A DNA stretch of 35,733 nucleotides from an uncultured Spartobacteria bacterium (GCA_903831635.1 CAIKYN010000414.1:1-35733); one strand, 5' to 3'. Numbered from the stretch's first letter, positions 5,368 through 31,582 are shown. The notes: a model not told the origin generated them from the sequence alone. Program-made: numbers and translations.

Positions 5368-5393
5368 ATCCTTTGCCAGTCATGTCAAAGAGC

Positions 5394-10833: not shown

Positions 10834-11488
10834 GAGATTTCCGGGGTGTCTTCTTCCTCTGAGGAAATGTCAAAATAGGAAGAGAGTGCGTCGAGTTCCT
10901 CCAACTGCGCTTCCTTCGAAGGACTCGGGTCCACCGTCCAAACGTCGTGACTCCGCCAGCAAGCATGCAAATACTGCAGCAAGCGTGCCAAAGGCATCCG
11001 CAGGATCTGGCGTTCCGGCCACCCCGTCTCCTTCGCAATGGTGAAGACCAGCGAGGCCGTGCGGGATGGCTCCCTCAGTTTCCCGGGGCCGTCTCCTTAT
11101 TCCCCGACCCAGGCTTCTCTTGGACATCAACCGTGGCCTCCGTAATGCCTGCCACGATACGTTCTACCACCGAACGAAGGCCCACCAAACCTGTCATGGG
11201 GATCTTGCGGGCAAAGTGACGCACGGCAGTCTGATAGGCCGTAGGATCGTCGCTCTTAAACGGTACAAGATCAGGATCCGTCCCATGGATATACAGGAAC
11301 TCAGTCATCTGCTGGAGTTGCTCCGCCGTCGTGAGCTTGGCCGAGGGGTCGTACAGGAACGTGAGCCCCGCATCGATCACGATCAACTGGGTCTCCAAGG
11401 AGAAAGGGCTGAAAGTGATGCCATTCCAAACAATCGGCGTGTCACGGAATGCCTTGTTCAGCACGGAGGGAGATGATTTTTTGGACAT
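10821..11488 (-). CDS. Tail assembly chaperone -1 frameshift fusion (gpGT-like)
   Basis: After a -1 slip at 11084-11078 the frame stays open for 86 codons (GKLREPSRTASLVFTIAKETGWPERQILRMPLARLLQYLHACWRSHDVWTV...TPEISWPL) to TAA at 10823-10821. This frame has no Met start, so it is not in the ORF track. Confidence 0.7.
11075..11488 (-). CDS. Tail assembly chaperone (gpG-like)
   Basis: ORF track, 137 aa. Lies between the tube-like genes and the tape measure. Ends ...CCG GGA AAC TGA, i.e. slippery G GGA AAC immediately before the stop. Confidence 0.75.
   Translation of the reverse strand: MSKKSSPSVLNKAFRDTPIVWNGITFSPFSLETQLIVIDAGLTFLYDPSAKLTTAEQLQQMTEFLYIHGTDPDLVPFKSDDPTAYQTAVRHFARKIPMTGLVGLRSVVERIVAGITEATVDVQEKPGSGNKETAPGN
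11078..11084 (-). other. Programmed -1 ribosomal frameshift slippery heptamer GGGAAAC
   Basis: X XXY YYZ pattern in the zero frame (G GGA AAC) directly before the G stop codon. The -1 frame is open downstream. Confidence 0.7.
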
Positions 11489-11524: not shown

Positions 11525-11686
11525 TTAGGTCAGAGGATGCTTTGGAGGTTTGGCATTAGGAGACACAAACTGCCTCTTGTAACCGATGGCATGGACTTCC
11601 CTGAAAGATGCCAACAATTTCTCAGCCGGTGTAAATTGCTTGAAAACAAGTTTCTTCTGCTTTTTTCCTGAGTTCCTGAGTTCCAT
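11525..11686 (-). CDS. Possible small basic protein (53 aa) starting MELRNSGKK
   Basis: Below the ORF-track cutoff. ATG 11686-11684, TAA 11527-11525. Its first 8 codons coincide with the repeated ATATGGAACTCAGGAACTCAGGAA box, so this may be a DNA motif rather than a gene. Confidence 0.25.
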   Translation of the reverse strand: MELRNSGKKQKKLVFKQFTPAEKLLASFREVHAIGYKRQFVSPNAKPPKHPLT

Positions 11687-11695
11687 ATTAATTTC

Positions 11696-12567: not shown

Positions 12568-12882
12568 TTAGGAGGCGGTGTAAGCGACGGCCTCCACCTT
12601 GGTCTTGGGGAAATCGTCATTGGTCTCGTCCTGACTGACCGAAGTCACCGTCAAGGTTCCAGCCGAGATCGTGGTAGCTCCGGCAAGTCCGAAAGTGGCC
12701 GATCCGACGATCTCCAAAGAGACTTTGCGTTCTTTCATTGGAACCGCATCGGCTGCCACGGTATTGCCCGATTCGTCTCGGTAGGTCTTGATGGTGGCCG
12801 TGGTCGTGTCCGTGTAGCTCTGGACATTGCCCGTGTAATTGGTGGAGATCGGTGGGGTTCCGACGCCGAAAGTTGCGCTCAT
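12568..12882 (-). CDS. Small tail tube-like protein, paralogue 1
   Basis: ORF track, 104 aa, beta-rich. Preceded by structured element A and a CTTTTGACAC-CCCTAGGG motif 14 nt upstream of the ATG. Confidence 0.6.
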   Translation of the reverse strand: MSATFGVGTPPISTNYTGNVQSYTDTTTATIKTYRDESGNTVAADAVPMKERKVSLEIVGSATFGLAGATTISAGTLTVTSVSQDETNDDFPKTKVEAVAYTAS

Positions 12883-13020
12883 ATCCCTAGGGGCCGTGTC
12901 AAAAGATGCCGACGGTGGTCGGCAGCTTAGTCATGCGAGGCAAAAGCCGAGCAGTCCCGAGATCACCAGATCGAGGGATGCCTGATTGGGGACAATCGGC
13001 AGACAAACTTATAATAGCCA
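12883..13020 (-). repeat. Structured intergenic element, copy A (possible cis-regulatory RNA)
   Basis: Homologous to 18961..19100 in the same orientation. Consecutive hairpins on the transcribed strand, with substitutions confined to loops and one stem fully compensated (see findings). Confidence 0.7.
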
Positions 13021-13449
13021 TTACGCCACCACTGGGGTCACTCCGATCTCGATCTCGATGTCGATCACATGACGTTCGTGATCGATCTGCTCCCGGACGG
13101 TCATGCCTGCAAGGCCCGCATAGCTCCAAGAGCTCTGGGATGTGTTAAACGCTTCGGCCAACGGGGAAGATGGCCCCTGACCATACTGGTCGAACAAGAC
13201 GGCAATCTGGGTCGCCCGGGTGCGGTGCAGTGCCAGATTGGCACCGGCTGCAGGGGTCGTGAGGCGAAGCGGGCAGGTGGATTTCCAAAGGCCAAGAGCC
13301 GAGCGCTGGGCACTGGTCGCCTCCACGATCAACAGGGGCTGGCTGTTGGGAATCTGTTCGGAACTTGTCCCTGGATGAATTGCCAGTCCCGAAAGGAAGC
13401 TCTGGGAAGAGAGGATCCCGATCAAGCCGAGTTCGATATCTGCGGTCAT
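13021..13449 (-). CDS. Head-tail connector / tail completion protein (by position)
   Basis: ORF track, 142 aa. Last gene of the connector block before the tube-like genes. Confidence 0.5.
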   Translation of the reverse strand: MTADIELGLIGILSSQSFLSGLAIHPGTSSEQIPNSQPLLIVEATSAQRSALGLWKSTCPLRLTTPAAGANLALHRTRATQIAVLFDQYGQGPSSPLAEAFNTSQSSWSYAGLAGMTVREQIDHERHVIDIEIEIGVTPVVA

Positions 13450-15813: not shown

Positions 15814-15858
15814 GTGGTTTCCACTAGGTGCGGTGTCAAAGTTCGGTGAATCGACGGC

Positions 15859-16749: not shown

Positions 16750-16780
16750 CCCCTCGGCGGGATGTCAAAGCGTGAAGGCA

Positions 16781-17049: not shown

Positions 17050-18627
17050 TTAGGCTGCGGATGTTTGGTCGTCGGAGGTTTCAATCACCTCGGGGGGTTG
17101 CTGAACTTTCAACTCGGGGTAGAGGTCACTCATGGACAAGCCGCGACTCTCCATCTCCTTTTTCCTCCAAAGGGCAAAATCCATTTCGCGGGAAACCTCT
17201 TCCTTAGCGTCCTGACCTTTGAGATTGTAAAGACGCTCGGTCGAGATCAGACCGGTGCGGTGTTGCTCCAGATAGATGCGACCATCACGACCGAAGTCGC
17301 AGGTGATCTGCTCGGGAGGAACCCATGAGTGCGACCAGAATGCGGGATCCTGACACTTGCGGAGGCGTCCTGCCTTGATCTCCTTGGCAATGGTGTAGAC
17401 CCAATCCCGCGAGAGCCAGGTATCGACAAAGTTGGCCTGTTCACTGGCAATCCATGCCTGGGCATCGGCCAGCACATACCTGACCCCTGCTCCGCCAAAT
17501 TTGGCAATCGACCAACCGAGGGCGTCCGAAATTCCGAGGCCCCAGCAGCAATCGCGAATCAAGGAATTCTCAACGAACTCGACGCTGTTCGGGTGGGGCC
17601 GCTGATCGAGTAATGTCCTGATGTCGTAGCCAGGGGGAACCTCTTTGATCTCGCCACCCATGCCGAAGACTTCGCTCGTGCGAATGCTTTGCAGGTTGCC
17701 GTTGGTATCCGAGCCGACGACCTGATCGGTCTGATACTTGCCAGCCAAGGCGTCCATGATGCCGGGGGTCGCTTCCTTATCCGAGGAAGCAAGGTAATAG
17801 CCGATCTGGTTACTGAGCTTGATGCCCTGCATGACCGAGGCATTCAGCTCGGTGATGTCGATCAATTTATTAACTGCATGGGCAAGAGCCGAAACGCCAC
17901 GGAACTGGCCGGGGCTTTCCTGATTGCACAACCAGACGACATTCTCAGCACCGACCCGGGTGGTCTTGGAGAAATCGTCATCGAGGAAATAGAATGCCTG
18001 GGCGCGACCGAGGCGATCCACGGCGATGCCGTCGTTCATTTTCTTGTCGAGGGTTCCGATCGGTTCCCCCACCTGAGTGCCGGAATAGAGACGGCGAAGT
18101 GCTCCACCGCTCTGGCTCTCGCTAAAAACGATGGCGGCATCGCCGTCTTTCTTCTGAGTCAAATAAGCGAGACGCTGCATCTGGACTCCAGTGAGCCGAG
18201 CAGAAACGTCATAGGTGGAAGCGCTGCGGGCGCGGCGGTTGTACGCGGCGTCGGCCAGGGCATTCCATTCGCTGTCGCGGGTCGTGGCCTGCGGGGTAAA
18301 TCCGTTGCCCACGACCATGTTCGTAATCGAGGTGAGCAGGCGGCGGGCCAGACCCATGTTGGCCATGAGATAATGCACCTTGCGGGCGATCTCGCGGCGG
18401 GTCCAGACGTTGATCTCATCCCGTGGGGAAAGTGTGGGCCAGTAGATGTACCCCCTCTGCATGGAAGGGACGGCGGCGTCGTAACCATACGCGGCCTTGA
18501 TCCGGGCGGGGCCGGTGCCTCCGGTCGTCCCGTTCGGAACTGCAGGCATGCCGGTGGGGGTGGAGGGGATCTTCGGGAGACCGCGACGGGTCGTTTGCCG
18601 TGTCGGGCGGGATGTCTTCTTGGCCAT
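17050..18627 (-). CDS. Portal protein, lambda (gpB) family
   Basis: ORF track, 525 aa. N-terminal basic tail, then ...YDAAVPSMQRGYIYWPTLSPRDEINVWTRREIARKVHYLMANMGLARRLLTSITNMVVGNGFTPQ... resembles the lambda-type portal signature. Lies downstream of a GpA-type terminase. Confidence 0.85.
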   Translation of the reverse strand: MAKKTSRPTRQTTRRGLPKIPSTPTGMPAVPNGTTGGTGPARIKAAYGYDAAVPSMQRGYIYWPTLSPRDEINVWTRREIARKVHYLMANMGLARRLLTSITNMVVGNGFTPQATTRDSEWNALADAAYNRRARSASTYDVSARLTGVQMQRLAYLTQKKDGDAAIVFSESQSGGALRRLYSGTQVGEPIGTLDKKMNDGIAVDRLGRAQAFYFLDDDFSKTTRVGAENVVWLCNQESPGQFRGVSALAHAVNKLIDITELNASVMQGIKLSNQIGYYLASSDKEATPGIMDALAGKYQTDQVVGSDTNGNLQSIRTSEVFGMGGEIKEVPPGYDIRTLLDQRPHPNSVEFVENSLIRDCCWGLGISDALGWSIAKFGGAGVRYVLADAQAWIASEQANFVDTWLSRDWVYTIAKEIKAGRLRKCQDPAFWSHSWVPPEQITCDFGRDGRIYLEQHRTGLISTERLYNLKGQDAKEEVSREMDFALWRKKEMESRGLSMSDLYPELKVQQPPEVIETSDDQTSAA

Positions 18628-18633
18628 AAAAAA

Positions 18634-18960
18634 CTAGGTTCGGACGAGTCGGTGACTGAAGTCGGCAATGACGGGTCCGGGCACTGCCGCAAGCTTGCTA
18701 TCTCCTGTCACTCCGGTGACAGCGGCCTCCATGAGGAGCTTCTCGACGGCGTAACCGATGACGCTCTTCGGGAACGTCACCTCACCCGAGGAATGCACGC
18801 CATCATTCCCCAATGTGGTCACTGTCACTTCCTCGGTCGCTTGCTGAAAAATCGTGTCAGCCAGGGCGGTCAACTGATTTACCGTCTGAGTCCTGCGGAG
18901 GTAGCGGGTGCAGTAGGTGACCTGTCCGTAATTATTAAGAGCCGAATAGTTCAGTGACAT
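18634..18960 (-). CDS. Hypothetical protein in the lambda gpW position (between terL and portal)
   Basis: ORF track, 108 aa. Preceded by structured element B and CTTTTGACAT-CCCCCTAGGGG 16 nt upstream. Confidence 0.5.
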   Translation of the reverse strand: MSLNYSALNNYGQVTYCTRYLRRTQTVNQLTALADTIFQQATEEVTVTTLGNDGVHSSGEVTFPKSVIGYAVEKLLMEAAVTGVTGDSKLAAVPGPVIADFSHRLVRT

Positions 18961-19100
18961 CGCTCCCCTAGGGGGATGTCAAAAGGCCGCTGGGAAGCGG
19001 GCTTAGTCATTCGAGGCATAGGCCGAGAAGTCCCGAGATCAGCAGATCGAGGGATGCCTGATCCGGGAGGATCGGCAGACAAAACCTTGGCACATGCCAA
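18961..19100 (-). repeat. Structured intergenic element, copy B
   Basis: An 82-nt block is ~89% identical to copy A by hand alignment. Same hairpin series, with the terminator-like hairpin built from a different stem sequence. Confidence 0.7.
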
Positions 19101-20882
19101 TTACTTTTTGGCGATCCAATGGGAGAGCACCGCCAGTTTCACGCAGTCGCCGTAGTGATCCTCGCGGATTTCTTTCCAATACTTTGTAGTCCCCCTCGGG
19201 GTGCGGGTCTCGAGTAACTGCTGTCCGGTGAGCCCATGGATGAGGGCAGCCGGTGCGTCGTCCGGTAGATGCAGGAGCGGGGCGAGTCGTTTCTCGATTT
19301 TCTCTAAATAGAGGCTGAGTTTCAGCGTGTAATCAACGTAGGTATGCAACACGAGGCCACGGTGGGTTTTCACCTGCGAGGTGCTCCAGGTGCCGAAGGA
19401 AGCGACGGAGCCCTTTGACGGCCAGAGCTTCCCCCGGCTGCGGACGCAAAGATCATATAGGCGGTCCGTTTGCCACCCTGAATCGACGATGCCGAAACCA
19501 ATGGGCCAGTCGGAGTCGCCGGTGCCCTTGTAGGTCTTCCCATTCAGGATGGGGAGGAGGTCTTCGGGAGCGAGGACGGTGCCGCAATCGATGACGGCGA
19601 TCTCCCCGTCGCGGGCCACCGCTGAGACGACCCAATGGGTCTGATCTTGTCCCGGATCTGCTGTGAGGACGAGGAATCCGAATTTCTCCAAAAGAAACGG
19701 GGGAATCTGACCGAGGCGGTATTCCTTGCACCGCAAGGCGTGAATTTTCTCTTCCTTCACATTCACCGTGCTCTCCTGATGCGGGAGTGCCATCCATCCA
19801 TTATTGTAATCCTGAAGGCCGAACAGATCGATGGACTCTAGGAATCGGACGGCAAGATTTCCAAAAGAACACTGAACGTCGGGAGAATAGAATGAATTCA
19901 GATGGTAAGACCGGCGTCCATAGGGGGCGGAAGGGTTGCGAGCGATCCATAGAGCTCCTTTTTTGTCCGCTTCCTTGAGGCTTGATCCCCGTTCGTGCCA
20001 TTGCTCAGGAGTCAACATCATGGCGGGCTTGTGATGGTCGCGAATCTGAAACTCACAATGGGGGCAGCGGTAGTGGGCGGACTGACGGACTTTCTCCTTG
20101 TCCCAGATGCCGTCCTTTCCTTTGGCTTCGGGATCCCAGATCAGGGTCTTATTCTCACCCTGTCCATGCTCAAAGGTGAACCGGCCTCCGCACTCGGGGC
20201 ATGGCACCTCAAAGTACCTCTGGTCTCCGGCTTGAAAATCCAACCAGAATTCGTGCTCGGCAGTGGTGGGTGTGGACATCTTGACCCGAAGGGATCGGGA
20301 GAAGGTCTTGGTGCGTTGTTCGGCGAGCTTCATAGCGCTCGATTCATCGGTCGAGGCACGGGCAAATTTGCAGCACTCATCGAGAATCAGCGTCTGGACG
20401 GGGCGGGATGCCAAGTTTGCGGGACTATTCGACCCGACCACGGTGGTCGTCTGGCGGGCAAACTGCATCTCGAGCGCCTTCATGAGGTCTTTATTTTCAG
20501 GCATGTGCGCGGAGAGGGCGGGATTGTCCTCGATCAGCGGGATCCAGCGGGTCTGACTCCATGAACGGCCAAGGGCCTCGGTCGGCATGACGACCAATGT
20601 GGGAGATGGGTCATTCACGAGCTTGTAGGCCATGCCCATCATGGAAACGGTGGTTTTCGCACACTGGGATCCCCAGCAGAGCGTGAGGTCGGTGCATCCG
20701 CTCTCGGGGTGGAACTGTTGAAGCGGCTCGCGCATGTAGGGCCGCAGGAGGGTGGAGAATCGACCGGGTTGATTCGGCGAGACGCGGGGGGAGAACTCAA
20801 TGTTCTCTTCACACCACGCGACAGGATCGGGCAACTCAGGCAGACTGAGATCCCCAAGGAACTCTCCCAAGAGATCGGTCAT
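19101..20882 (-). CDS. terL: Terminase large subunit, GpA (lambda A) family
   Basis: ORF-track frame 19101..21191. Start moved to ATG 20882-20880 (MTDLLGEFLGDLSLPELPDPVAWCEENIEF...), which forms an ATGA overlap with the terS stop. ...PGRFSTLLRPYMREPLQQF..., ...PTLVVMPTEALGRSW... and the CPECGG...RCPHCEF zinc motif fit GpA terminases. Confidence 0.9.
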   Translation of the reverse strand: MTDLLGEFLGDLSLPELPDPVAWCEENIEFSPRVSPNQPGRFSTLLRPYMREPLQQFHPESGCTDLTLCWGSQCAKTTVSMMGMAYKLVNDPSPTLVVMPTEALGRSWSQTRWIPLIEDNPALSAHMPENKDLMKALEMQFARQTTTVVGSNSPANLASRPVQTLILDECCKFARASTDESSAMKLAEQRTKTFSRSLRVKMSTPTTAEHEFWLDFQAGDQRYFEVPCPECGGRFTFEHGQGENKTLIWDPEAKGKDGIWDKEKVRQSAHYRCPHCEFQIRDHHKPAMMLTPEQWHERGSSLKEADKKGALWIARNPSAPYGRRSYHLNSFYSPDVQCSFGNLAVRFLESIDLFGLQDYNNGWMALPHQESTVNVKEEKIHALRCKEYRLGQIPPFLLEKFGFLVLTADPGQDQTHWVVSAVARDGEIAVIDCGTVLAPEDLLPILNGKTYKGTGDSDWPIGFGIVDSGWQTDRLYDLCVRSRGKLWPSKGSVASFGTWSTSQVKTHRGLVLHTYVDYTLKLSLYLEKIEKRLAPLLHLPDDAPAALIHGLTGQQLLETRTPRGTTKYWKEIREDHYGDCVKLAVLSHWIAKK

Positions 20883-21529
20883 GCAGGGATCGGATCTGAG
20901 GTGTCGTACTTGCTGAACTCTTTCTCGACGGCGGCCAGCTGGGGCGTGAAGCGGCTGCGCAGCCATTCCTGACATGCCTGGATGCCAAAAGCGGGGTCGA
21001 AACTGTTTGCCCGGGGGCCAACCTCGGAAGGCATGTTGGCCAAGACTGCTCGTATCGGTTGGATGAACCGACGGCGTAGATCGGCGATCTGGGAAGCAGG
21101 GACGAGACGACCGGCGGCGATCTCGGCGGTCTCTCTGGCTCGCTTGCTTTTGCGATAGCTCTCCTGGGCGTCTTTTTCGGCACGGCTCCATTGCGTTGCG
21201 TTGATGTCTCGGGAAGCCAGAAGTTCTCCATAGGTGGCGGCGACGCTTTGCCAGAACTGATAGGCTTCCCTTTCCATGCGACGGGCCTTTTCCAGATCGT
21301 CTCCACTATCCTCGAAGGGAGCCACCGGCGTTGCGTTGAGCGATTCGCAAGGGGAAATTTGACGTACAGGGGCGGCAGAGGTGCGGACGGCGGTGTTGGC
21401 CTGACGGGAAAGGAACTCAAGAAAAAGCGGATCCCGGCGCTGACGATGAAGCTGGGCCGTTCGCAGGGAGATATTTCTGGCCGAGGCATAAGCCTTCACA
21501 AGCAGGTGCTGGTCTCTTCCGTGTCGCAT
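20879..21529 (-). CDS. terS: Terminase small subunit
   Basis: ORF track, 216 aa. N-terminal HTH-like ...AYASARNISLRTAQLHRQR... Translationally coupled to terL. The overlapping 217-aa ORF in another frame is rejected. Confidence 0.7.
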   Translation of the reverse strand: MRHGRDQHLLVKAYASARNISLRTAQLHRQRRDPLFLEFLSRQANTAVRTSAAPVRQISPCESLNATPVAPFEDSGDDLEKARRMEREAYQFWQSVAATYGELLASRDINATQWSRAEKDAQESYRKSKRARETAEIAAGRLVPASQIADLRRRFIQPIRAVLANMPSEVGPRANSFDPAFGIQACQEWLRSRFTPQLAAVEKEFSKYDTSDPIPA

Positions 21530-21536
21530 TCATCGT

Positions 21537-21594
21537 TTGCGTCATGTCAAAGAAAACGCAAGGGCATGGCACATGACGCAATGAGTGCGTCATG
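21537..21594 (-). promoter_or_regulatory. Alternative-hairpin leader upstream of terS (three copies of CATGACGCA/TGCGTCATG)
   Basis: Plus strand: TTGCGTCATG 21537-21546, CATGACGCAA 21572-21581, TGCGTCATG 21586-21594. The middle arm can pair with either neighbour (10 bp or 9 bp). Confidence 0.55.
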
Positions 21595-21833
21595 GCGGTG
21601 CGTCGGGAAAAATGCGTCTTTGCTCCGTTTTACAGTGGGAGACCCAATCAAGGCGACAATCCAAAGCAAAAAATAGATTCCCTTGCAACAAATTTTCCGC
21701 ATGACGCCTAATGTTTGAAGCGTTTGCCAATCACCCCAGATGCTGGTGGTGCAGGTCATCTGCGCTTTCACCCGCCCTCCATACCATATTAATTTTTCAG
21801 CGTTTCAAAAAATCACCATTGTTTCCCACCTTT

Positions 21834-22026
21834 ACCTGCATTACCTGCACTTCTTCTCTCTTAAAGAATTGTAGATAAGAGAAATAAACCCAGTGCCGGT
21901 GACGCCAAAGATTGCCACCATAGGTGCAGGTGACCTGCACTTCGGCGCGCCCATACCCATTTCATCCTGCAAACCCCGCCCCTTTATTTTCAATTCTCAC
22001 CAACATAGTGCCGGTGACCTGCACTT
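21834..22026. repeat. Iteron / palindrome cluster (candidate cos/terminase recognition region or replication origin)
   Basis: GTGCAGGTGACCTGCACTT at 21924-21942 and GTGCCGGTGACCTGCACTT at 22008-22026 (18 of 19 nt identical, 84 bp apart). ACCTGCACTT also at 21843-21852, ACCTGCA at 21834-21840, GTGCCGGTGAC at 21893-21903. 21924-21940 is a perfect palindrome GTGCAGGT-G-ACCTGCAC. AT-rich tracts lie between the repeats. Confidence 0.8.
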
Positions 22027-22081
22027 GTGATCGACCAAAAAGGGCGCGGGAACGCAGAGCATGACGCCGAACTCAGGACAC

Positions 22082-23254: not shown

Positions 23255-23850
23255 TTGCCCTCCTTGAGCTTTTGGATCTCGTCGCGGAGATAGCGGAGGC
23301 AATGCAATAGATCGTCATTTTCACCAGCGTTTTCACATAGAACGAGGTGATATTCGAAAATATCCAGCGGCATCTCCTGCTTTGGCTCAACTACTAATTT
23401 ACTACTATTTTTTTTACGATTAGTAGTTGGCAACGGGCGGCGGGTGCGGATTCTTCCTGAAGTTTGAATTTTTTCGCCAACCCAAAGACTAAGAGCAGGA
23501 ACCCACCCTGCCATTGGTGAATTATACTGGTCGTCAGCTTCTATGATTTCCCCTTTTTCTTTTATGCGCCATTCTAGTTTAGGGCATATAGTTTCGTAGG
23601 GATGAAGCGTGTGCTTAGAATGAGGTTGACCGCAATCCTTGCATACCCTCTTGGTGACAGGTTTCTCTGGCGCGGTGCCTAGCGCGGCTATAATTCTGTT
23701 CCGCATCTCGCTTGCTGTGGATCTTGCCGCCCCTACCCTTGAATGCAGGGCCATAAATGACGCGCATTCGTCGAGAAGCTCCCTGAGCCTTGCGACCTCG
23801 TTGTCTGGACTTTTAGGTTCCTTGGGGAACTGGCTATATATATTACTCAT
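23251..23850 (-). CDS. Hypothetical protein (shares the NEVARLRELL motif with the upstream gene)
   Basis: ORF track, 199 aa. AT-rich relative to its neighbours. CKDCG...H..H Cys/His cluster. Confidence 0.5.
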   Translation of the reverse strand: MSNIYSQFPKEPKSPDNEVARLRELLDECASFMALHSRVGAARSTASEMRNRIIAALGTAPEKPVTKRVCKDCGQPHSKHTLHPYETICPKLEWRIKEKGEIIEADDQYNSPMAGWVPALSLWVGEKIQTSGRIRTRRPLPTTNRKKNSSKLVVEPKQEMPLDIFEYHLVLCENAGENDDLLHCLRYLRDEIQKLKEGK

Positions 23851-23855
23851 GGTCT

Positions 23856-24443
23856 TTATATCGTTCTTGGCGCGGGGGCGACTCGAGCTTTTAAGCCCTC
23901 AATCTCTTTACATGCTTTTTTATAGAGCCGATTTTCCGCGTTTCCATCGAACTCAATATAAGCAGGGAGATCTCGGATCTCCTCCGCAATTTCAATCGCT
24001 CGGTTCAGAAGCTCCCTGAGCCTTGCGACCTCGTTGGTTTTCTCCACGAGGTCGCGTTCTAGCTTCTCGGACAATTCCACCAAGTCATCATGAGTATGGA
24101 ATGAAAAAAAAACCGCATCCGTTCGAGGTGTTTCTACCTTATTTTTTTCTAGCTCCTTCCTAAACCTTGCCACTTCCGCTTCGGCCTTGTTTAGTTTCTC
24201 GTATCTGTTCACGCCTATCCTTTCGGCGTTTTCTTGAAGCTCCTTGATTTCCTCCCTCAGCTTCTCATTCTCCACCTCCAGCTCATGGCGCTTTCCGACC
24301 ACACGGAGCAGTTCAGGGACAACAGCACAGTCCTCATGCCCCCGTTTGAATGCCTCCTTCACCCGCTGCTCGACCGTGGGGAGAGTACCATCCTCATTAA
24401 GGAAACGGACACCCTCACTGTTCCAGTATTGTTCTGGCGTCAT
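23856..24443 (-). CDS. Coiled-coil hypothetical protein
   Basis: ORF-track frame (TTG start at 24461). Start moved to ATG 24443, preceded by GGGAGGTG 5 nt upstream. E/K/L/R-rich heptad-like sequence. Confidence 0.55.
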   Translation of the reverse strand: MTPEQYWNSEGVRFLNEDGTLPTVEQRVKEAFKRGHEDCAVVPELLRVVGKRHELEVENEKLREEIKELQENAERIGVNRYEKLNKAEAEVARFRKELEKNKVETPRTDAVFFSFHTHDDLVELSEKLERDLVEKTNEVARLRELLNRAIEIAEEIRDLPAYIEFDGNAENRLYKKACKEIEGLKARVAPAPRTI

Positions 24444-24921: not shown

Positions 24922-25083
24922 TTAATTCCCCCGATTTCGAGGGTATTGGTTTTGTTTTGGTTTCTTGGTTTTGTCCTTCTTCCAGACGATCGCCTCATAG
25001 TTGGAGCGATACGCCTGGCTGAAATTATTTCGGGGAGCATCCCCCTTGCCGTTCTGGGCGCTATTTTTGTTATTACGAGACAT
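24922..25083 (-). CDS. Small basic hypothetical protein (53 aa)
   Basis: ORF-track frame 24922..25122. Start moved to ATG 25083, 4 nt after the upstream stop. MSRNNKNSAQNGKGDAPRNNFSQAYRSNYEAIVWKK... Confidence 0.4.
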   Translation of the reverse strand: MSRNNKNSAQNGKGDAPRNNFSQAYRSNYEAIVWKKDKTKKPKQNQYPRNRGN

Positions 25084-25087
25084 CGGT

Positions 25088-25933
25088 TTACTCCTTAACG
25101 AGGATCTGACTCTCCGGGTCATAGCCGGGTCCCTGCAGGACCAGCTTCCCGTCCTTGAAGATCGGAAGAGGAATCCGACTGATCATCCGCAGGGGCCTCT
25201 GCTGCCTACGGAACTCATGCGACTGCAACACCGCTGCCGAGGCCATCTTACCCATCGACTCGTAGCCCCGCTCATAAGTCACCTTCCCATCCTCCCCCTT
25301 CGACTTGATCGTCCTCCAGAAAAGCACATCCTTCTCCACATAGGTACGGAAGGAATCAGGCGAGAGATCCTCCATCCGGTCACTGTGCGGCTGAAGCACC
25401 ACCGGCACCCCATCGAGGAGGAAAACCCCATTCCTAGAGCAGACAGCTCCCACCTCACGGGAAAAATCCGAGAGCAGCCGATTCACACGAGGCAGCTCGA
25501 TCTCCTCACGGAGCATCTTTTTCTCACCCGAGAGCGCCTCCAGCGCATCCTTGGCCGCATCGGCTGAGAGATGACCATCTCCCAAGGACTTGGCGATTGC
25601 CACTTTCTCGCGTTCCAGATGGCACGACCGCAGCGCCTCCAGAGAGCTTGCCACAACCGGCCAGACCTCATGGCCGGGAACGACCGTGGCCGGCCCCCCG
25701 ACGAAGTCCAGCTTGCCAGACTCCATGAGTGCCTGGGTGATCGTGATCAGATTGGCCGGACGCCCCTTCAGCTCCACCTCACGGGCATGGAGGAAAATCT
25801 CCGCCGTGATATCGAGGAGCCAGGACGGGGAGAAGTCCTTGACCTCATCCACGATCCTCTGAGTCCCTTCGCCCACGATCCACCCCCGGACGATCGTGTC
25901 CGCCTGGGCATTATGAAAAATTCCTCCTGACAT
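25088..25933 (-). CDS. DnaB-N-terminal-domain protein; probable N-terminal half of the replicative helicase
   Basis: ORF track, 281 aa. ...HNAQADTIVRGWIVGEG...FLHAREVELKGRPANLITITQALMESGKLDFVGGPATV... follows the DnaB N-terminal domain pattern. The C-terminus ends ...PIFKDGKLVLQGPGYDPESQILVKE. Confidence 0.55.
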   Translation of the reverse strand: MSGGIFHNAQADTIVRGWIVGEGTQRIVDEVKDFSPSWLLDITAEIFLHAREVELKGRPANLITITQALMESGKLDFVGGPATVVPGHEVWPVVASSLEALRSCHLEREKVAIAKSLGDGHLSADAAKDALEALSGEKKMLREEIELPRVNRLLSDFSREVGAVCSRNGVFLLDGVPVVLQPHSDRMEDLSPDSFRTYVEKDVLFWRTIKSKGEDGKVTYERGYESMGKMASAAVLQSHEFRRQQRPLRMISRIPLPIFKDGKLVLQGPGYDPESQILVKE

Positions 25934-26080
25934 ATTGCTCCTTGTTCCTTGTGATTTTCTTCCTGACTGCTTGGTAGTGAGAGACCACGAGTCAAACGAC
26001 CCGACGGCATACTCACCACCGCCACCGAGACAACCGCTACCCGTGGTAGTGATCGGCAGAGTGACCTCTAGTTATTGCGG

Positions 26081-26476
26081 TTAATGGGACGCGATGGCAT
26101 GACGACCGCAGAAAAGCCCCTTCGAGCCCTTCCCCTTCGGATGGCCACATTGCCAGAGGATACCGAGGCCCCCATCGATCGCCCGAAGACATCGGTCTGG
26201 GTCATAGTCCCGCCCATAAGCACGACGGGCCTCTGCAGCCGTGCGAGGTTGCCGAGGAAAAGAGATCTCCTCATCGGACTCCATCTGCTTGATTTCGGGT
26301 TTGAAGCAAGTGAACGCCGCATGATTGGAATACAGCGCCACAGACTCCTTCACGACCGACGCCAGCAGCCGAGTCTCAGGCCGTGCCACCTCATGGCAGG
26401 TGACCGCCTTGGCACAATTCGTTCCTGGGCAATAGGCACGCTTGAGGATCGAAGCATTCGGGGAAACGGCACTCAT
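26081..26476 (-). CDS. Cys-rich putative zinc-binding protein
   Basis: ORF track, 131 aa. CPGTNC...C.H near the N-terminus and WQCGHPKGKGSKGLFCGRH near the C-terminus. ATGA overlap with the clamp gene stop. Confidence 0.5.
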   Translation of the reverse strand: MSAVSPNASILKRAYCPGTNCAKAVTCHEVARPETRLLASVVKESVALYSNHAAFTCFKPEIKQMESDEEISFPRQPRTAAEARRAYGRDYDPDRCLRAIDGGLGILWQCGHPKGKGSKGLFCGRHAIASH

Positions 26477-27687
26477 TTCCCACCTCCTGACGTGCGAATT
26501 GGCATCAGGACATGTGTCCAGCGGATCGGATTGCTTGGGCCGTGATCCGGCAACGTCAGCACCAGCGGATCCATGGGTGCCCCGGGGTAGTAAACCGCCT
26601 TGGCCGTCGGGATCGACTTGATGGCATCACGGAGGAACTGGGCATTCACCGCCACATCCTCCACACCCGGCGTTTCCACATCGACCTGGGCACTTCCCAC
26701 CTCCGGCTCCTCCAGCTTGAAGCTATCTTTCGAGATCACCAGCTTCGGCGTCTTGTCCTTGCCCGTGGTCACCGCAATAGCCAGCACCGAGGAAATCGCA
26801 TCCGACCACTCATCAGGCGAGATCGTGATTGCAGGACGAGACGAGAAATCAGGGATCACCGCCCGATACGTGGGGAATTTCCCCTCGACCAGATTCACCT
26901 TCAGCCAGGCATTATCCCACCAGAAGTTGAGCGCACGATGATCGGCTAAGAGCTTCACCACCTCGCCATCCGCATCAGCGGCCAGATCACGGATCACCGA
27001 GACCGCATCAGCAGGGATCAAGGCCCCACCCTCTTTTCCCTCACTCAGCACCGAGGCCCCGAGTTCCTTCAGATCCCGCTCATAGATCGAGAGGCGGCGT
27101 CCATCGGTAGCCACCATACGGACTAGCGACCCCTCCACCTCGAGCTTCAGCGACCGGAGCAAATAGCGCGACTCATCGCTAGAGATCGACTCCTGAACCC
27201 CCTTGATCATCCCCTCGAGGAAGCGACCGGCTACCTCCACCTTCAGCGCACCATCCTCCGGCACCATCGCCGGTTCCGAGTGAAACTCCGAAGCCGACAT
27301 TGAAGAGAACGTATAGACCGCCGAACGACCCGAAACTTTCAGCCCCCGGGGTGATAGCTCCATCGAGACCTCCGAGTCTTGCAAGAGCTTCGATGCCTCC
27401 AGCAACTTCTTGGCATTCACCAGACAGCTTCCCCCTATTGAGATATCACACGCGAACTGTGCCTTCATCCAGAGATCACCATTGGTGAAATCAAGCGTCA
27501 GATGCCCCTCCTCATCCGCCTCCAGGCGAACCGTATCGAGGATCGGTTGCTGATTCCCAGCCCGTGAGAGCTTAGTCAAACGCCCCATCCAGACCCGCAA
27601 GTCATTTGTTTTCAGTTTAAGTTTCACTTCTCTGCTCCTTTTTTTGGTTGTCGTTGTTAGTTGTTGGCCGTCTTTCCGACCTGTCAT
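26473..27687 (-). CDS. dnaN: DNA polymerase III beta sliding clamp homologue
   Basis: ORF track, 404 aa. ...LTKLSRAGNQQPILDTVRLEADEEGHLTLDFTNGDLWMKAQF...GSCLVNAKKLLEASKLLQDSEVSMELSPRGLKVSGRSAVYTFSSMSASEFH... parallels the canonical DnaN N-terminal pattern (PIL..V.LEA....L.L.ATD.E......V.AK.L..I...LP......L......L.I..G.S.F.L......EFP). Confidence 0.8.
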   Translation of the reverse strand: MTGRKDGQQLTTTTKKRSREVKLKLKTNDLRVWMGRLTKLSRAGNQQPILDTVRLEADEEGHLTLDFTNGDLWMKAQFACDISIGGSCLVNAKKLLEASKLLQDSEVSMELSPRGLKVSGRSAVYTFSSMSASEFHSEPAMVPEDGALKVEVAGRFLEGMIKGVQESISSDESRYLLRSLKLEVEGSLVRMVATDGRRLSIYERDLKELGASVLSEGKEGGALIPADAVSVIRDLAADADGEVVKLLADHRALNFWWDNAWLKVNLVEGKFPTYRAVIPDFSSRPAITISPDEWSDAISSVLAIAVTTGKDKTPKLVISKDSFKLEEPEVGSAQVDVETPGVEDVAVNAQFLRDAIKSIPTAKAVYYPGAPMDPLVLTLPDHGPSNPIRWTHVLMPIRTSGGGK

Positions 27688-28301
27688 TGATCCTCCCCAT
27701 GCGACTGGGTCATATTTTTGATTCGGTTGTTATTGCCCATCTGGCATTCCGAGTAAGCCAGCGAAGCCGTCTCCGACTTCTGAAACCTTCCTTTTGATCC
27801 GAAATGCTCATTGGCCTCGCGGATCTGGATGTCCAGACGCTGTTTACTCACCCCGATCCGGCGGGCGTAATCGGTCATGGAGAGCCCATCCAGAACGTCA
27901 GGTGTGAAGATCAGGCCGATCGCCCCCAGCCGCATGGCGATCACCATGCACCGGGCCATCGCATCACGTCGGCACGGATCCACCACCTCCATTCCCAGCA
28001 AGTCAGCGGCCTGCGCCTCCGTGAACTTCATGCCACGCTTCACCACCTTGAAATCCCGCGTGATCCACCCCAGAGCCGCCTTGAGCGCCTCCGCAGCACG
28101 CGAATCCTCGGTCACCGAGCAGTGCCTGATCACCTCGATCAGATCACCCTGGTACTTCTCCCAGAGGAGTGATGCGAGATCATCACGATCCATGCGGGAA
28201 TTCCGATCCGCTGCACGGAGAATCTTGGCCAGAATCATCGGCCCATCGAGGTCATCTTCCATCTTCGGCCAATACGAAGAACTGGGGGACTCGTGATTCA
28301 T
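27684..28301 (-). CDS. HTH DNA-binding protein, sigma-70 region-4-like C-terminal domain (possible phage transcription factor)
   Basis: ORF track, 205 aa. ...LDGLSMTDYARRIGVSKQRLDIQIREANEHF... looks like a region-4/LuxR-type HTH. ATGA overlaps on both sides. Confidence 0.4.
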   Translation of the reverse strand: MNHESPSSSYWPKMEDDLDGPMILAKILRAADRNSRMDRDDLASLLWEKYQGDLIEVIRHCSVTEDSRAAEALKAALGWITRDFKVVKRGMKFTEAQAADLLGMEVVDPCRRDAMARCMVIAMRLGAIGLIFTPDVLDGLSMTDYARRIGVSKQRLDIQIREANEHFGSKGRFQKSETASLAYSECQMGNNNRIKNMTQSHGEDQ

Positions 28302-28489
28302 CGGATTCCCTTGGCCTCCTGGTTGCGAATCTCTCGGCGGATCGCCTCAGAGCGACGAGCCCGGTTAAGGCCCGAAACATACCCCCCACGACGCCCAAAG
28401 AACGAGCACGCCTCAGACCACGACTCCCCGGTCTCTTGAATGCGCTTCTGAATCCTTTCCACATGACTCATCGGAGGTGAGGTCTTCAT
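28298..28489 (-). CDS. Small hypothetical protein (63 aa)
   Basis: ORF-track frame (TTG start at 28495). Start moved to ATG 28489, which forms an ATGA overlap with the upstream stop. Confidence 0.45.
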   Translation of the reverse strand: MKTSPPMSHVERIQKRIQETGESWSEACSFFGRRGGYVSGLNRARRSEAIRREIRNQEAKGIR

Positions 28490-28716
28490 GAACAAATGAC
28501 CTCCTCCGCCGTGAGAGAATTGGACTTGGGGAAACGGATCAGATCCGCTTCGGGGAAATCATTCTCCAGAGATTCCAGCTCATCGAGGAACCGACTGACG
28601 ATCCTGGCAGCACGGGGGGACTCGAAGCAGTCAAAGCAGACAAGATCCCCTTCATTGACGAGGAAATGCTCCTCCTCGGCCCCACAGATAGAACAGCACC
28701 GAGTGACAGCACTCAT
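28486..28716 (-). CDS. Zinc-ribbon protein, first clear gene of the early operon
   Basis: ORF-track frame 28486..28809. Start moved to ATG 28716, preceded by GGGAGGTGG. CSICG...17 residues...CFDC. Confidence 0.55.
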   Translation of the reverse strand: MSAVTRCCSICGAEEEHFLVNEGDLVCFDCFESPRAARIVSRFLDELESLENDFPEADLIRFPKSNSLTAEEVICS

Positions 28717-29050
28717 CGGCCACCTCCCTTGCGGATGAACTCCCAGGACAAGACAGCAGTCACCGAAACCGCCAGAACAATGTAGAAATGCCCCAGATTC
28801 ACGCGGCACCCCCTTTGGGTGGACAAACCGTGGACTGAATTTTCAGACCCGTGCGGCGCTGAAGAGCGGCCATCTCGTATCCCGTGATCCGGGAATACCA
28901 ATTCCAGAGGGCGGAAAAAAAACGCCTCATCGGAAAAAACGGCTCATCGCCGCAGCTAAGATTTCCGCAAATTCCTGCCGACCGACCCACAGGGTCAACA
29001 TCAGCACCATCAAAAGAACGGGGATCATTGAACCCCTCCCCGAGCAAAAG

Positions 29051-29228
29051 TGCTACACTTTTTGCTACACTCGCCCGATTTTTGGGATTTTACTCTGTAA
29101 AAAGAGTGGCTGCCCCGCATGGATTCGAACCATGAATAATGGTTTCTCTGTCCGATTTCTTGTTTTTCTCTGTTCATGTCTGTGATGGTTTTGTGTTTTC
29201 TGTGGTTTTCTGCTACACTTGCTACACT
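29051..29228. other. attP-like attachment region: tRNA 3'-end core flanked by arm-type repeats
   Basis: TGCTACACT at 29051-29059, 29063-29071, 29211-29219 and 29220-29228, all in the same orientation. Two copies lie on each side of the core at 29107-29134. Directly upstream of int. Confidence 0.65.
29107..29134 (-). other. tRNA 3'-end fragment (T arm + acceptor 3' strand + CCA); probable att core
   Basis: Minus strand reads CATGG-TTCGAAT-CCATG-CGGGGCA-G-CCA: a perfect T stem-loop with the GTTCGAATC consensus, a 7-nt acceptor strand, a discriminator and CCA. No matching 5' acceptor strand (TGCCCCG) lies within 80 nt, so it is not a complete tRNA gene. Confidence 0.75.
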
Positions 29229-29234
29229 ACCGCC

Positions 29235-30269
29235 ATGGCTTCCCTTTATTCCCGAGCGCGATCCCCGTACTGGTGGATTGCTTTTTATGACGCGACCGGA
29301 AAGCGCAGGTGCGAATCCACCGGAAAGCGGTTGGACTCGGTTAAGGAAACGAGAGAAGCCAGGCAACTGAGGGCCTCGAAGGAGGTTGCCGAAATGAATG
29401 CTCCGGCCTCGGAGCGATCCACGCATGATCTTGGAAAATGGGTTCAGCCTTGGATCACAAGTCGCTTCGCTCAACAGGCCAACACACTCGAAAGCTACAC
29501 CCTCACTTGGAATCATTTGAAAGGGTTCCTTGACCTCAAGAGTATCCGAGCTGCCGAGCAGATCCGACGGGAGCACTGCTATGAGTACCTTGAACATAGG
29601 CAGAGAAAAGTCTGCCGAAACACGGCCATCCATGATCTTGTCGTCCTGCGGCTGATCCTCAATGAGGCCGTGAAACGCGGATGGATCACCCAAAATCCTG
29701 CCGCCAAACTGGGTCTCAAAAAAGATACGCCAAAGCTCAAACCGGAAATCACCGCACAGGAAGCGGCGATTATTGAAGAAAATCTCCGCAACCTTCCCGA
29801 ACGGATGCAGATCGCATGGAAAATTGCCTGGGCTCAAGGATGCCGTCTCGCCGAGACCGCCCTCCCCTTGAGCGATGTCGATCTGAAAAAAGGATTGATC
29901 ACCTTCACCCAGAAGGGAAACCGAAGACATACGACCCGCCTTCATCCCGACTTGACTCCCCTCTTCCGAAAGCTGAAACGGGAAAAAAAGACCCGCACTT
30001 GGGAGTTTTCCCGAAACGCCTCCAGAGACTGGGCAAGGGTTTTCAAAAGCCTCGGTCTTCCGCACCTGACCTTTCATTCCACCCGCGTGACGGTCATCAC
30101 AAAGATGGCCCGATCCGGTAAAGTGAACGAACAGCAAGCGATGAGGTTTATCGGTCATGCGTCAGAACAGGTTCACCTGATTTACCAACGGTTGAAGACC
30201 TCCGACCTTGATTCTTGCCTTGAGGCCCTCGGCGCACCTTCATTGAAGGGTAAGCCAAAGAAACCCTGA
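29235..30269 (+). CDS. int: Tyrosine integrase
   Basis: ORF-track frame 29139..30269. Start moved to ATG 29235 (MASLYSRARSPYWWIAFYDATGKRR..., a typical integrase N-terminus). Catalytic residues visible: ...AQGCRLAE... (Arg), ...HSTRVT... (H-x-x-R), ...IGHASEQVHLIYQRL (His, Tyr). Confidence 0.9.
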   Translation: MASLYSRARSPYWWIAFYDATGKRRCESTGKRLDSVKETREARQLRASKEVAEMNAPASERSTHDLGKWVQPWITSRFAQQANTLESYTLTWNHLKGFLDLKSIRAAEQIRREHCYEYLEHRQRKVCRNTAIHDLVVLRLILNEAVKRGWITQNPAAKLGLKKDTPKLKPEITAQEAAIIEENLRNLPERMQIAWKIAWAQGCRLAETALPLSDVDLKKGLITFTQKGNRRHTTRLHPDLTPLFRKLKREKKTRTWEFSRNASRDWARVFKSLGLPHLTFHSTRVTVITKMARSGKVNEQQAMRFIGHASEQVHLIYQRLKTSDLDSCLEALGAPSLKGKPKKP

Positions 30270-30420
30270 ACTCAGGGTGATTTGATAACCATGCCAGGGC
30301 ATGCTGCCGGGTGGTCCTTGTCCCATAGGCCATCACATACCCGACCCTGCACATAGCCGACACATAAGTCGGATCGTGCCCGAGTTGTTCGGCAAGTTGG
30401 GATTTATTGAGAAGCTGCAT
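30148..30420 (-). CDS. Xis-like / MerR-type HTH DNA-binding protein
   Basis: ORF track, 90 aa. MQLLNKSQLAEQLGHDPTYVSAMCRVGY... is a short N-terminal HTH of the excisionase type. The C-terminal ~40 codons overlap the 3' end of int on the opposite strand. Confidence 0.5.
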   Translation of the reverse strand: MQLLNKSQLAEQLGHDPTYVSAMCRVGYVMAYGTRTTRQHALAWLSNHPEFRVSLAYPSMKVRRGPQGKNQGRRSSTVGKSGEPVLTHDR

Positions 30421-30425
30421 GTCGG

Positions 30426-30584
30426 TTAAGAAACTTTTTTTGTAGGTCCATAAGCCTTACGAAGTGCCTTCCTGACTAAATCGGAGACTTTGAGTTCTTG
30501 GGCGTCCGCAAGTCTGCGGAGATGGATGAATACTGGTTCGGATACTCGAACATTAATTCTTGTTTCCTTTCGTTTTTCCGTCAT
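30426..30584 (-). CDS. Ribbon-helix-helix (CopG/Arc-like) regulator, 52 aa
   Basis: Below the ORF-track cutoff. MTEKRKETRINVRVSEPVFIHLRRLADAQELKVSDLVRKALRKAYGPTKKVS. Beta strand (RINVRV) plus two helices. Its stop is 5 nt before the Xis-like start. Confidence 0.6.
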   Translation of the reverse strand: MTEKRKETRINVRVSEPVFIHLRRLADAQELKVSDLVRKALRKAYGPTKKVS

Positions 30585-30679
30585 GGGGCCAGTTGTGCCA
30601 CAAATGTTCCCAAAGGGGAAGAAAAAAGATAAGCAGAATAATTATTTGCGCCGTGACCGATCGGGGCACATTGTAACCC

Positions 30680-30898
30680 ATGGCATTAACTGAAACCATT
30701 AAGGCTAAAGTAGAACCCTCGATGAAGGCCGATTTGGAAAGGATGGCAAAAGAAGAAGGCCCCGGAGTGACGGTTTCTGATTTGGTGAGAAGGGCGATTC
30801 ACCACGTGTATTTCAAAGAAAACACAACCCTCTACCCGATCACCGAAATCACCTCACTCCGACCGGCTGAAGAACCTAAAAAATCAAACGGTCTGTAA
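30680..30898 (+). CDS. Ribbon-helix-helix (CopG/Arc-like) regulator, 72 aa
   Basis: ORF track. ...IKAKVEPSMKADLERMAKEEGPGVTVSDLVRRAIHHVY... has the same VSDLVR(K/R)A helix as the divergent 52-aa RHH. Confidence 0.65.
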   Translation: MALTETIKAKVEPSMKADLERMAKEEGPGVTVSDLVRRAIHHVYFKENTTLYPITEITSLRPAEEPKKSNGL

Positions 30899-30944
30899 TT
30901 TTATCTTTCCCGGATGGACGCAGGTTGTAGAACAAAAGAAAACC

Positions 30945-31340
30945 ATGATCACTCTTTTTCGTAACGGGCAGAACGATGGGCCGTTCACGCTTGAGCAGAT
31001 CCGGGCTCAGATCAAGGGAGGCGTCCTTTCCATGGGAGATCCGGCATGGATGGAAGGATGGAGTGATTGGAAGACCGTATCGGAGATCCCAGGACTCCTA
31101 GAATCACCGGCCCCTGCATTGCCCACGATCGTTGCGGCACCTGACGTTGTCGAAAAGCCGAAGCTCAATATCACGGGAACCTATTGCCCGAATTGCGGCA
31201 ACCGGAACAGCTATCGAAAATCCGATGGCGTTGGTTGCCTTATCATGGGAATTTTGTTCATTTCCATGATCGGGATTCTTTTCATCCCTTTTCTACCGAA
31301 GTCCTGGCACTGCCGTTCCTGTGGGAATGTCTGGAAATAA
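30945..31340 (+). CDS. GYF-domain + LITAF-like zinc-ribbon membrane protein (lysogeny-expressed candidate)
   Basis: ORF track, 131 aa. N-terminus ...NGQNDGPFTLEQIRAQIKGGVLSMGDPAWMEGWSDWKTVSEIPGL fits the GYF_2 pattern. C-terminus is CPNCG-[hydrophobic ~22 aa LIMGILFISMIGILFIPFL]-WHCRSCG, as in LITAF/SIMPLE-type zinc ribbons. Confidence 0.65.
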   Translation: MITLFRNGQNDGPFTLEQIRAQIKGGVLSMGDPAWMEGWSDWKTVSEIPGLLESPAPALPTIVAAPDVVEKPKLNITGTYCPNCGNRNSYRKSDGVGCLIMGILFISMIGILFIPFLPKSWHCRSCGNVWK

Positions 31341-31343
31341 CCC

Positions 31344-31580
31344 TTAGTCCTCTTCTTCCTCGAGCTCGAGGTCGGGTTCGAGTTGGCCGTCGGCAAAATC
31401 TTTGCTGAGCTGGATCAGGGCAAATGCGTTGCCCCATTCCGTTTTAGCGAAGCGCGTGACGCCATTTTCTTCATGGGAGACGACGATAAAACCGAGGTCG
31501 AAATGCTCACTTAGGATTTGCCTGGCCTTTTCCATGGCCTTGAGGCGGCCTTGGTGATCATCGGGCGTGGCTTCGCTCAT
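31344..31580 (-). CDS. Small acidic hypothetical protein
   Basis: ORF track, 78 aa. C-terminus DGQLEPDLELEEEED. 2-nt gap after the phosphoesterase gene. Confidence 0.5.
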   Translation of the reverse strand: MSEATPDDHQGRLKAMEKARQILSEHFDLGFIVVSHEENGVTRFAKTEWGNAFALIQLSKDFADGQLEPDLELEEEED

Positions 31581-31582
31581 GG

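Follow-up and report, generated by a model that had tools for sequence, protein, structure and literature searches.

The window analyzed here, a stretch of 35,733 nucleotides assigned to an uncultured Spartobacteria bacterium (GCA_903831635.1, CAIKYN010000414.1:1-35733), carries two copies, A and B, of an intercistronic element, and both belong to a family, type 1, whose members span about 110 nt and fold into four helices (H1 to H4). The carriers are a clade of temperate lambda-like siphophages, so far represented in metagenomes only, and type 1 shares one layout with a second kind of element, type 2, which takes its place in close relatives. These elements appear to be a new, undescribed structured family, of a kind, the phage intergenic regulatory or repeat cassette, that is already known. 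Our tentative reading, to which we give a probability of about 0.4, is that they are co-transcribed intercistronic cassettes, moved by recombination and acting in cis as mRNA punctuation.

Copy B is found in a spacer (18961-19100) which is the exact interval between the large terminase gene and a gene coding for a 108-aa protein, and all of the genes that surround it are on the minus strand (Table 1). Copy A, separated from copy B by 6076 nt, is 89% identical to it across 83 nt and scores 119 bits with R1, a covariance model of type 1 alone. By its terminase, the nearest isolate is the Akkermansia phage Moulinsart (38% identity), from which the element is absent, and the host is probably other than an enterobacterium. 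A BLAST search of 50,697 phage records gave no match for the element or for the surrounding 4.2 kb.

Table 1. Coordinates of the genes, elements and motifs, in the window unless a contig (L number) is given
Feature	Position	Strand	Remarks
Large terminase gene	19101-21191	minus	Pfam GpA_ATPase and GpA_nuclease
108-aa gene	18634-18960	minus	precedes the portal gene; start codon ATG at 18960
Lambda-family portal gene	17050-18627	minus	
Copy B, type-1 element	18976-19084	minus	
Copy A, type-1 element	12896-13008	minus	between 142-aa gene (13021-13449) and 104-aa gene (12568-12882)
hp0, small hairpin UUGGCAUGUGCCAA	19087-19100	minus	directly 3′ of the terminase stop codon
5′ boundary motif UUUUGUC	19078-19084	minus	UUUGUC invariant in all type-1 variants
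H1	19055-19077	minus	4 + 5 bp stem, bulged A, invariant UCCC loop
H2	19031-19054	minus	4 + 4 bp stem, 2x2 UC/UC internal loop; abuts H1
H3	19010-19029	minus	3 + 3 bp stem, 2x2 UC/UC internal loop
AUGACUA, invariant	19004-19010	minus	initial A closes H3; UGACU links H3 to H4; H4 lower stem starts at the final A
H4	18983-19004	minus	variable GC stem, UCCC loop, covarying lower stem; then CCUUUUGACA
Start-associated motif TTTGACA	18977-18983	minus	outside the insertion; kept in relatives without the element
Remaining gene leader	18961-18976	minus	CCCCCUAGGGG palindrome and GGAG ribosome-binding site, then ATG at 18960
TTTGACA, all exact copies	1332-1338, 5383-5389, 10868-10874, 12897-12903, 15834-15840, 16763-16769, 18977-18983, 21545-21551	minus	
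ATTGACA variant	about 33063-33069	minus	
Type-2 element	L008 8829-8924		
Type-2 element	L010 8773-8868		
Type-2 elements	L170 1917-2012, 5721-5817, 8693-8789		
Type-2 element	L184 7166-7261		
Type-2 element	L181 3093-3187		
Type-2 element	L173 12614-12710		

Other repeats were noted in the window. A 17-bp palindrome (GTGCAGGTGACCTGCAC, with variants) occurs three times at 21749-22037, with spacings of 175 and 84 nt; the copies lie upstream of the neighbor of the large terminase gene, and may serve as operators or for the binding of terminase. Repeats of the TTCCTGAGTTCCTGAGTTCCATATTAA type, direct and inverted (11653-11695, 33088-33114, 33367-33397 and 33544-33575), cluster in the intergenic region at 33.1-33.6 kb, with one more in the late region, and have an operator-like look. 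At the edge of the window (1-441), three units of 147 nt stand in tandem, 100%, 89% and 68% identical to the reference copy, and a perfect 30-nt direct repeat (23774-23803 and 24007-24036, 233 nt apart) is located in or beside ORFs of 199 and 201 aa.

Read 5′ to 3′ on the minus strand, the spacer of copy B begins with hp0, a small hairpin that a consensus terminator scan found to be terminator-like on both strands, and that we count with the inserted DNA because it is missing at the empty site of a close relative (L008). The 5′ boundary motif may pair with the downstream GACA or with an internal GAC; RNAalifold predicts an outer helix, UGUC/GACA, which is invariant and hence outside the reach of covariation. 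H1 (UGCC-GAUCC-UCCC-GGAUC-A-GGCA) and H2 had been described as two hairpins separated by a single U; the pair of hairpins is real, but the U itself is the predicted first pair of H2, so that the helices abut, and H3, a third hairpin, was missing from the original prediction. Hairpins with a UCCC loop are confined, in the window, to the two elements. Downstream of H4 come CCUUUUGACAUCCCCCUAGGGGAGCG and the AUG of the next gene.

The folding of type 1 is clearly under selection. Folding of the gene strand gave z-scores of -3.3 (101-nt core) and of -3.2 and -4.4 (the two full elements). The type-1 alignment is formed by nine distinct variants, copies A and B and variants C to I from public viral and metagenome contigs; these seven full-length variants, and several chimeric forms, were recovered by exact-pattern scans, the earliest of which, in viral contigs, were empty, shorter patterns then finding the homologues. 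RNAalifold gave 35 pairs in H1-H4 for the nine variants, with 95.8% of the cells paired; double compensatory changes are present in 15 of the 35 pairs, a figure reached by none of 500 shuffles, and in a control with slid 3′ partners only 28-42% of the cells were paired. Two pairs of H1 covary (CG/UA and CG/GC), as do two pairs of H3, whose internal loop is fully paired in variant G; four of the eight pairs of H2 show double changes and its internal loop is converted into Watson-Crick pairs in variant D. Sequence varies most in H4, where identity between variants is only 27-91%, but seven of eight pairs covary and pairing is kept: H4 evolves like a structure-only hairpin. Its lower stem, AAG/CUU, which takes the first two U's of the U-run, is AUC/GAU in three variants. 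The within-genome pairs A-B and D-H have a core identity of 88-89%. The hairpins of the original prediction are thus borne out, by folds of greater stability than shuffled sequence gives, by the second copy and by covariation in nine homologues.

Rfam 15 gave no match at the gathering score across the window and none at E <= 10 in 18900-19160, and no relevant match across the type-1 and type-2 elements of contig L170; ARAGORN found no tRNA or tmRNA genes in the window. Two candidate functions were rejected. A leader peptide was considered, as the AUG of AUGACUA opens an ORF of 10-19 codons that ends at the UGA of TTTGACA in five of eight variants; however, the peptide is not conserved, its codons are scrambled by the covariation of the stems, and type 2 has no conserved start codon. 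A hammerhead or other ribozyme was discarded since the CUGANGA core is absent and Rfam gave no match.

The site of copy A holds, in two relatives (L008 and L010), a distinct element of about 96 nt, which defines type 2. Its parts are, in order, UUGAC, H1 (UCCC loop), H2 (UUCG), H3, UCUUACGC, H4 (UCCC loop) and UUGUUUGACA; the UCUUACGC linker is invariant, UUGUUUGACA forms the 3′ end, and on the gene strand one H1 loop reads UCCG and the H2 loops read cUUCGg or cUACGg. In an alignment of eleven type-2 variants, compensatory changes are found in 13 of 31 pairs. The R1 model aligns with type-2 elements end to end (E of about 1e-6 to 1e-3), and the two types share one layout: H1-H3 abutting, then H4, in a cassette of about 95-115 nt. 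There are two to five copies per contig, some tandem or chimeric, with such arrays in L111, L035, L170 and L184; in L111 the 5′ half of a type-1 element is joined to a type-2 element, and in L035 a lone H1 is followed by other modules. In some type-2 variants the linker before H4 reads GCUCUUACGC, which resembles boxA. The lambda nut and rrn antiterminator sites have a GCUCUUA-like boxA beside a boxB hairpin; a boxA/boxB assignment is not supported for type 1, which has no boxA-like sequence, and only some type-2 variants read GCUCUUACGC before H4.

The occupancy of both sites differs between close relatives, whose terminases are 89-94% identical to that of the window and whose 108-aa proteins are 79-94% identical. 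At site B, the window has a type-1 element preceded by hp0, L008 has a 27-nt spacer reading UAG-CCUUUUGACAUCCCCCUAGGGGAGCG-AUG, L009 and L010 also have a short spacer, and L007, L003 and L031 have AT-rich morons with a sigma-70-like promoter; the 108-aa protein of L031 is identical to the window's. At site A, where the window again has type 1 and L008 and L010 have type 2, L007 is empty. It is thus shown that a stop codon and a TTTGACA motif already in place may or may not have a cassette added between them, and that cassettes are gained, lost and exchanged, for type 2 or for morons, between near-identical phages. That the element may be a small mobile intergenic repeat had been offered as an alternative in the original prediction, and the filled, empty and swapped alleles at the same sites strongly support it. 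As morons occupy the same spacer in close relatives, the spacer between the terminase and 108-aa genes is an insertion hot spot. The morons are located at about 3720-4350 in L007, about 1375-2358 in L003 and 1-87 in L031, and their promoter reads TTGACG-N17-TAGAAA. Type 1 also precedes unrelated genes, including non-structural ones: variant G, in a non-structural region, follows a canonical terminator directly, stands 4 nt ahead of an AUG, and has genes for a methyltransferase and a DUF3560 protein as neighbors.

That type-2 cassettes with shared flanks replace the elements fits homologous exchange. A T-run followed by GTC or GAC is present at both ends of the element, but we detected no terminal inverted repeats or unambiguous target-site duplication, and the whole spacer, including hp0, differs between alleles; no transposase was found among the genes of the window, and no recombinase or transposase was identified. 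A scan of 185,579 species genomes with one exact 18-mer gave 70 matches, all of them due to chance (BLAST extension of only about 25 nt), and the true metagenome matches of the 18-mer were to phage contigs only. The core consensus of integron attC sites is GTTRRRY; an attC site was rejected, as the boundary GTTTGAC does not fit this consensus and the ends of the element are direct, not inverted, repeats. Two metagenome contigs begin exactly at a module boundary, L030 with its position 1 at the TTTGTC boundary of copy B and L034 with its position 1 at the first H2 base of copy A; such starts suggest branch points of the assembly graph, and so population variants.

Both types of element end exactly at TTTGACA, and the supposed U-tract is the start of this separate motif, which remains at sites without the element. 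TTTGACA has eight exact copies in the window, every one on the gene strand. Seven, together with the ATTGACA variant, precede the start codon of a substantial ORF by 13-20 nt, among these ORFs one for an early-region dNMP kinase; the eighth (10868-10874) is 34 nt from the start codon that follows it. The copy at 12897-12903 is the one downstream of copy A. An extended form of the pattern is found six times against 1.45 expected, and TTTGACA(Y) is often followed by a short palindrome and a ribosome-binding site, CCYAGGGR. In related contigs the motif precedes many ORFs by about 20 nt; no enrichment was found in the Akkermansia phage Moulinsart. Invariant segments of both types, UGUC in type 1 and UCUUACG in type 2, are complementary to TTTGACA, their invariance placing the corresponding helices beyond covariation.

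The terminator-like hairpin with a U-tract that had been proposed gave a mixed picture: H4 of copy A was flagged by the consensus terminator scan, whereas H4 of copy B, with a 5-bp stem and only four U in the next 8 nt, was not. In variants C, E and F the U-run is only UUU; H4 is followed by 3-4 U, as against 7-8 U for canonical terminators of the same contigs. Strong intrinsic terminators with long GC stems lie directly upstream of three elements (L178, about 3426-3455; L170, upstream of 5817; L184, upstream of 7261); their presence implies read-through (antitermination) or an unrecognized promoter within the elements. A promoter scan found no promoter-like site in or beside the element, and only the neighboring morons of L007 and L003 carry one. 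A sigma-70 promoter using TTGACA as its -35 region was rejected because no leader has a -10 region at 16-18 nt, and the -10 would sit inside the ORF.

The most curious feature of the elements is that either strand may be the functional one. Folding favors the complementary strand, with -49.0 and -50.8 kcal/mol (z = -5.1 and -6.3) for the two full elements against -38.5 and -43.7 kcal/mol (z = -3.2 and -4.4) on the gene strand, and DNA parameters give the same ranking. The plus strand is better by 4-14 kcal/mol in all nine type-1 variants; for type 2 it is better by 1.7-5.3 kcal/mol in eight of eleven variants, with one equal and two favoring the gene strand. Pyrimidines make up nearly all unpaired positions of the gene strand, namely in the UCCC loops, in the UC/UC internal loops and at a C.C mismatch of H4, and in the complementary reading these become GGGA, a GNRA tetraloop, tandem GA in a 5′-CGAG-3′ context, and G.G. 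A manual tally of the type-1 H1-H4 stems on the gene strand gave 272 Watson-Crick cells, 31 C.U, five C.C, five A.C and no G.U; the five A.C are G.U on the other strand, and RNAalifold counts two G.U on a MAFFT alignment.

These observations would suit a functional complementary strand (plus in the window), either as an antisense small RNA that might, for instance, silence the gene downstream at its translation-initiation region, or as single-stranded DNA hairpins such as a priming or recombination signal. The loops of type-2 H2, which there read GAA or GUA, the excess of A.C mismatches over G.U pairs on the gene strand and, in copy B, hp0 followed by UUACUUUUU, which is terminator-like on the plus strand, point the same way. 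However, neither the scan nor inspection revealed an antisense promoter, the other variants, copy A included, have no consistent plus-strand terminator, and the U-runs always come after the hairpins on the gene strand, from which RNA is certain to be made. Moreover, several gene-strand loops of type 2 (UCCG, cUUCGg and cUACGg) fit UNCG tetraloops, and an invariant G.U of the gene strand is found in the extended H4 stem of type 2. We regard a function of the complementary strand as unlikely.

In the reading that we prefer, mRNA punctuation, the cassette would be transcribed within the operon mRNA and act in cis. With H4 and its U-run, the upstream message could acquire a 3′ end that resists exonucleases, or meet a leaky terminator; processing could take place at the U-rich UUUG(A/U)C boundaries; and the invariant UGUC or UCUUACG might pair with TTTGACA, mask the motif and so damp the expression of the next gene. 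Spread of the cassettes would rely on recombination at the boundary motif that they share, a route described for the PeSL cassettes (PMC2839356). The attenuator and the processing or stabilizer site proposed earlier are compatible with this anatomy. Punctuation is supported by the orientation of the hairpin and U-run, which always matches that of the genes. It is weakened by the strictly conserved loop sequences, which passive punctuation does not need, by the better fold of the complementary strand and the lack of an identified recombinase or transposase, and by H4 with its 3-4 U, a poor terminator beside the canonical ones with 7-8 U, three elements being directly behind strong ones.

A rival reading is a conditional attenuator with the layout of a riboswitch or RAT, in which binding of H1-H3 to RNA polymerase, or to a factor of the phage or the host, would decide whether H4 terminates. 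The layout is suitable: a conserved multi-helix domain precedes a stem that varies in sequence but keeps its structure, and a U-run and start site come next. A bound partner is suggested by the invariance of the UCCC loops and of the AUGACUA linker, AAG can pair with the 5′ UUU or the 3′ CUU to give alternative folds, and the strong terminators nearby imply that the phage depends on read-through. Yet near-identical phages dispense with the element, its neighbor genes are unrelated and some non-structural, the U-run is short, partly paired and only UUU in three variants, no antiterminator-like protein was recognized in the window, and the alternative antiterminator helix has no covariation evidence, so we think an attenuator improbable. 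Presence or absence at identical sites and several copies per genome would also be features of a miniature mobile element that is purely selfish, without function for the phage, such as a non-autonomous, hairpin-ended one of the IS200/IS605 type inserting beside TTTGAC in one orientation. The alike boundaries at both ends, the strict orientation, the near absence of G.U together with the motifs favoring DNA hairpins on the other strand, and the start of L030 exactly at the TTTGTC boundary would agree with it. That the ends lack inverted repeats and an unambiguous target-site duplication, that whole spacers differ down to hp0, that the genes of the window revealed no transposase and the 18-mer scan only chance matches in species genomes, and that replacement by type 2 fits homologous exchange, make such an element quite improbable.

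The original prediction proposed a put-like processive antiterminator that would gate read-through from packaging into head genes and from connector into tail genes. The put RNAs, of about 70 nt, are two long stem-loops encoded immediately after PL and PR; acting in cis, they render RNA polymerase terminator-resistant by way of its beta′ zinc-binding domain (PMC9378689). As with putL and putR of HK022, there are two copies per genome here, with adjacent stem-loops and terminator-like hairpins downstream; but the unit has four helices in about 110 nt, is intercistronic rather than promoter-proximal, and is dispensable, and the host is probably not an enterobacterium. A comparison with HK022 had been suggested: in a one-way search, R1 run on the HK022 immunity region (positions 25000-32000), both strands, with filters off (Rfam has no put family), the best score was 6.6 bits (E = 1.9), that is, no match in sequence or structure. 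The gating itself fares no better, since an element that near-identical phages lack at both sites, and that is found before unrelated genes, with a homologue in a non-structural region, is hard to square with control of transcription from terminase to head genes and from head to tail genes. A put-like RNA, already disfavored, is thus very improbable.

A wider reading of types 1 and 2, which we consider possible but doubtful, is that these cassettes of structured nucleic acid form a class of their own, new and with a specific partner, and that they join TTTGACA in a phage-wide punctuation or silencing of expression. They might give rise to small RNAs, excised or antisense, or the RNA might be a scaffold on which a host factor, Rho for instance, finds pyrimidine (YC) motifs; if so, portable cassettes would allow phages to rewire the expression of single modules by swapping. 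In any of these readings, the elements are a candidate new family of two types (15 of 35 and 13 of 31 pairs with compensatory changes), absent from Rfam, from uncultured temperate phages, and the natural filled, empty and swapped alleles in near-identical genomes are ready controls for the function of intercistronic elements. They also call for caution, as a hairpin followed by a U-run inside a phage operon can belong to two independent features.

Repeated intercistronic structures, such as the RNase III sites of T7 and the REP elements of enterobacteria, can set the ends or the stability of mRNAs; the layout here is alike, without known homology in sequence or structure, and the conserved loops of our elements point to a specific partner. 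The PeSL cassettes of T4-type phages are also alike in that conserved intergenic stem-loop motifs flank variable DNA and that indels or replacements between close relatives map to the motifs (PMC2839356; PMC4122927). However, PeSL contains a strong sigma-70 promoter, none of which was found here, and the cassette described here is itself non-coding and multi-helical. For the TTTGACA motif only, the stoperators of Cluster A mycobacteriophages offer the closest parallel, being many asymmetric sites in short intergenic spaces whose orientation follows transcription (PMC9283540); stoperators bind a repressor, whereas the fixed distance of TTTGACA from the start codon fits a role in translation or at the RNA level at least equally well.

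The start-associated sequences (SAS/ESAS) of Cluster K mycobacteriophages, a system whose function has been unassigned since 2011 (PMC3203893; PMC12699233), are the closest analogue, in layout only: a short asymmetric motif, in one orientation, precedes some of the start codons at a nearly constant distance, and about half of the motifs have an extra hairpin-forming element immediately upstream. The consensus sequences, GGGATAGGAGCCC there and TTTGACA here, are unrelated, which places our elements outside SAS/ESAS. Moreover, the SAS/ESAS add-on is one 17-bp inverted repeat and is fixed per gene family, whereas the add-on here is a four-helix element of 95-115 nt, polymorphic between near-identical phages, in structural as well as non-structural regions and in another host lineage. 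Nevertheless, the coupling of these cassettes to a start-associated motif links them to the question posed by SAS/ESAS in Cluster K.
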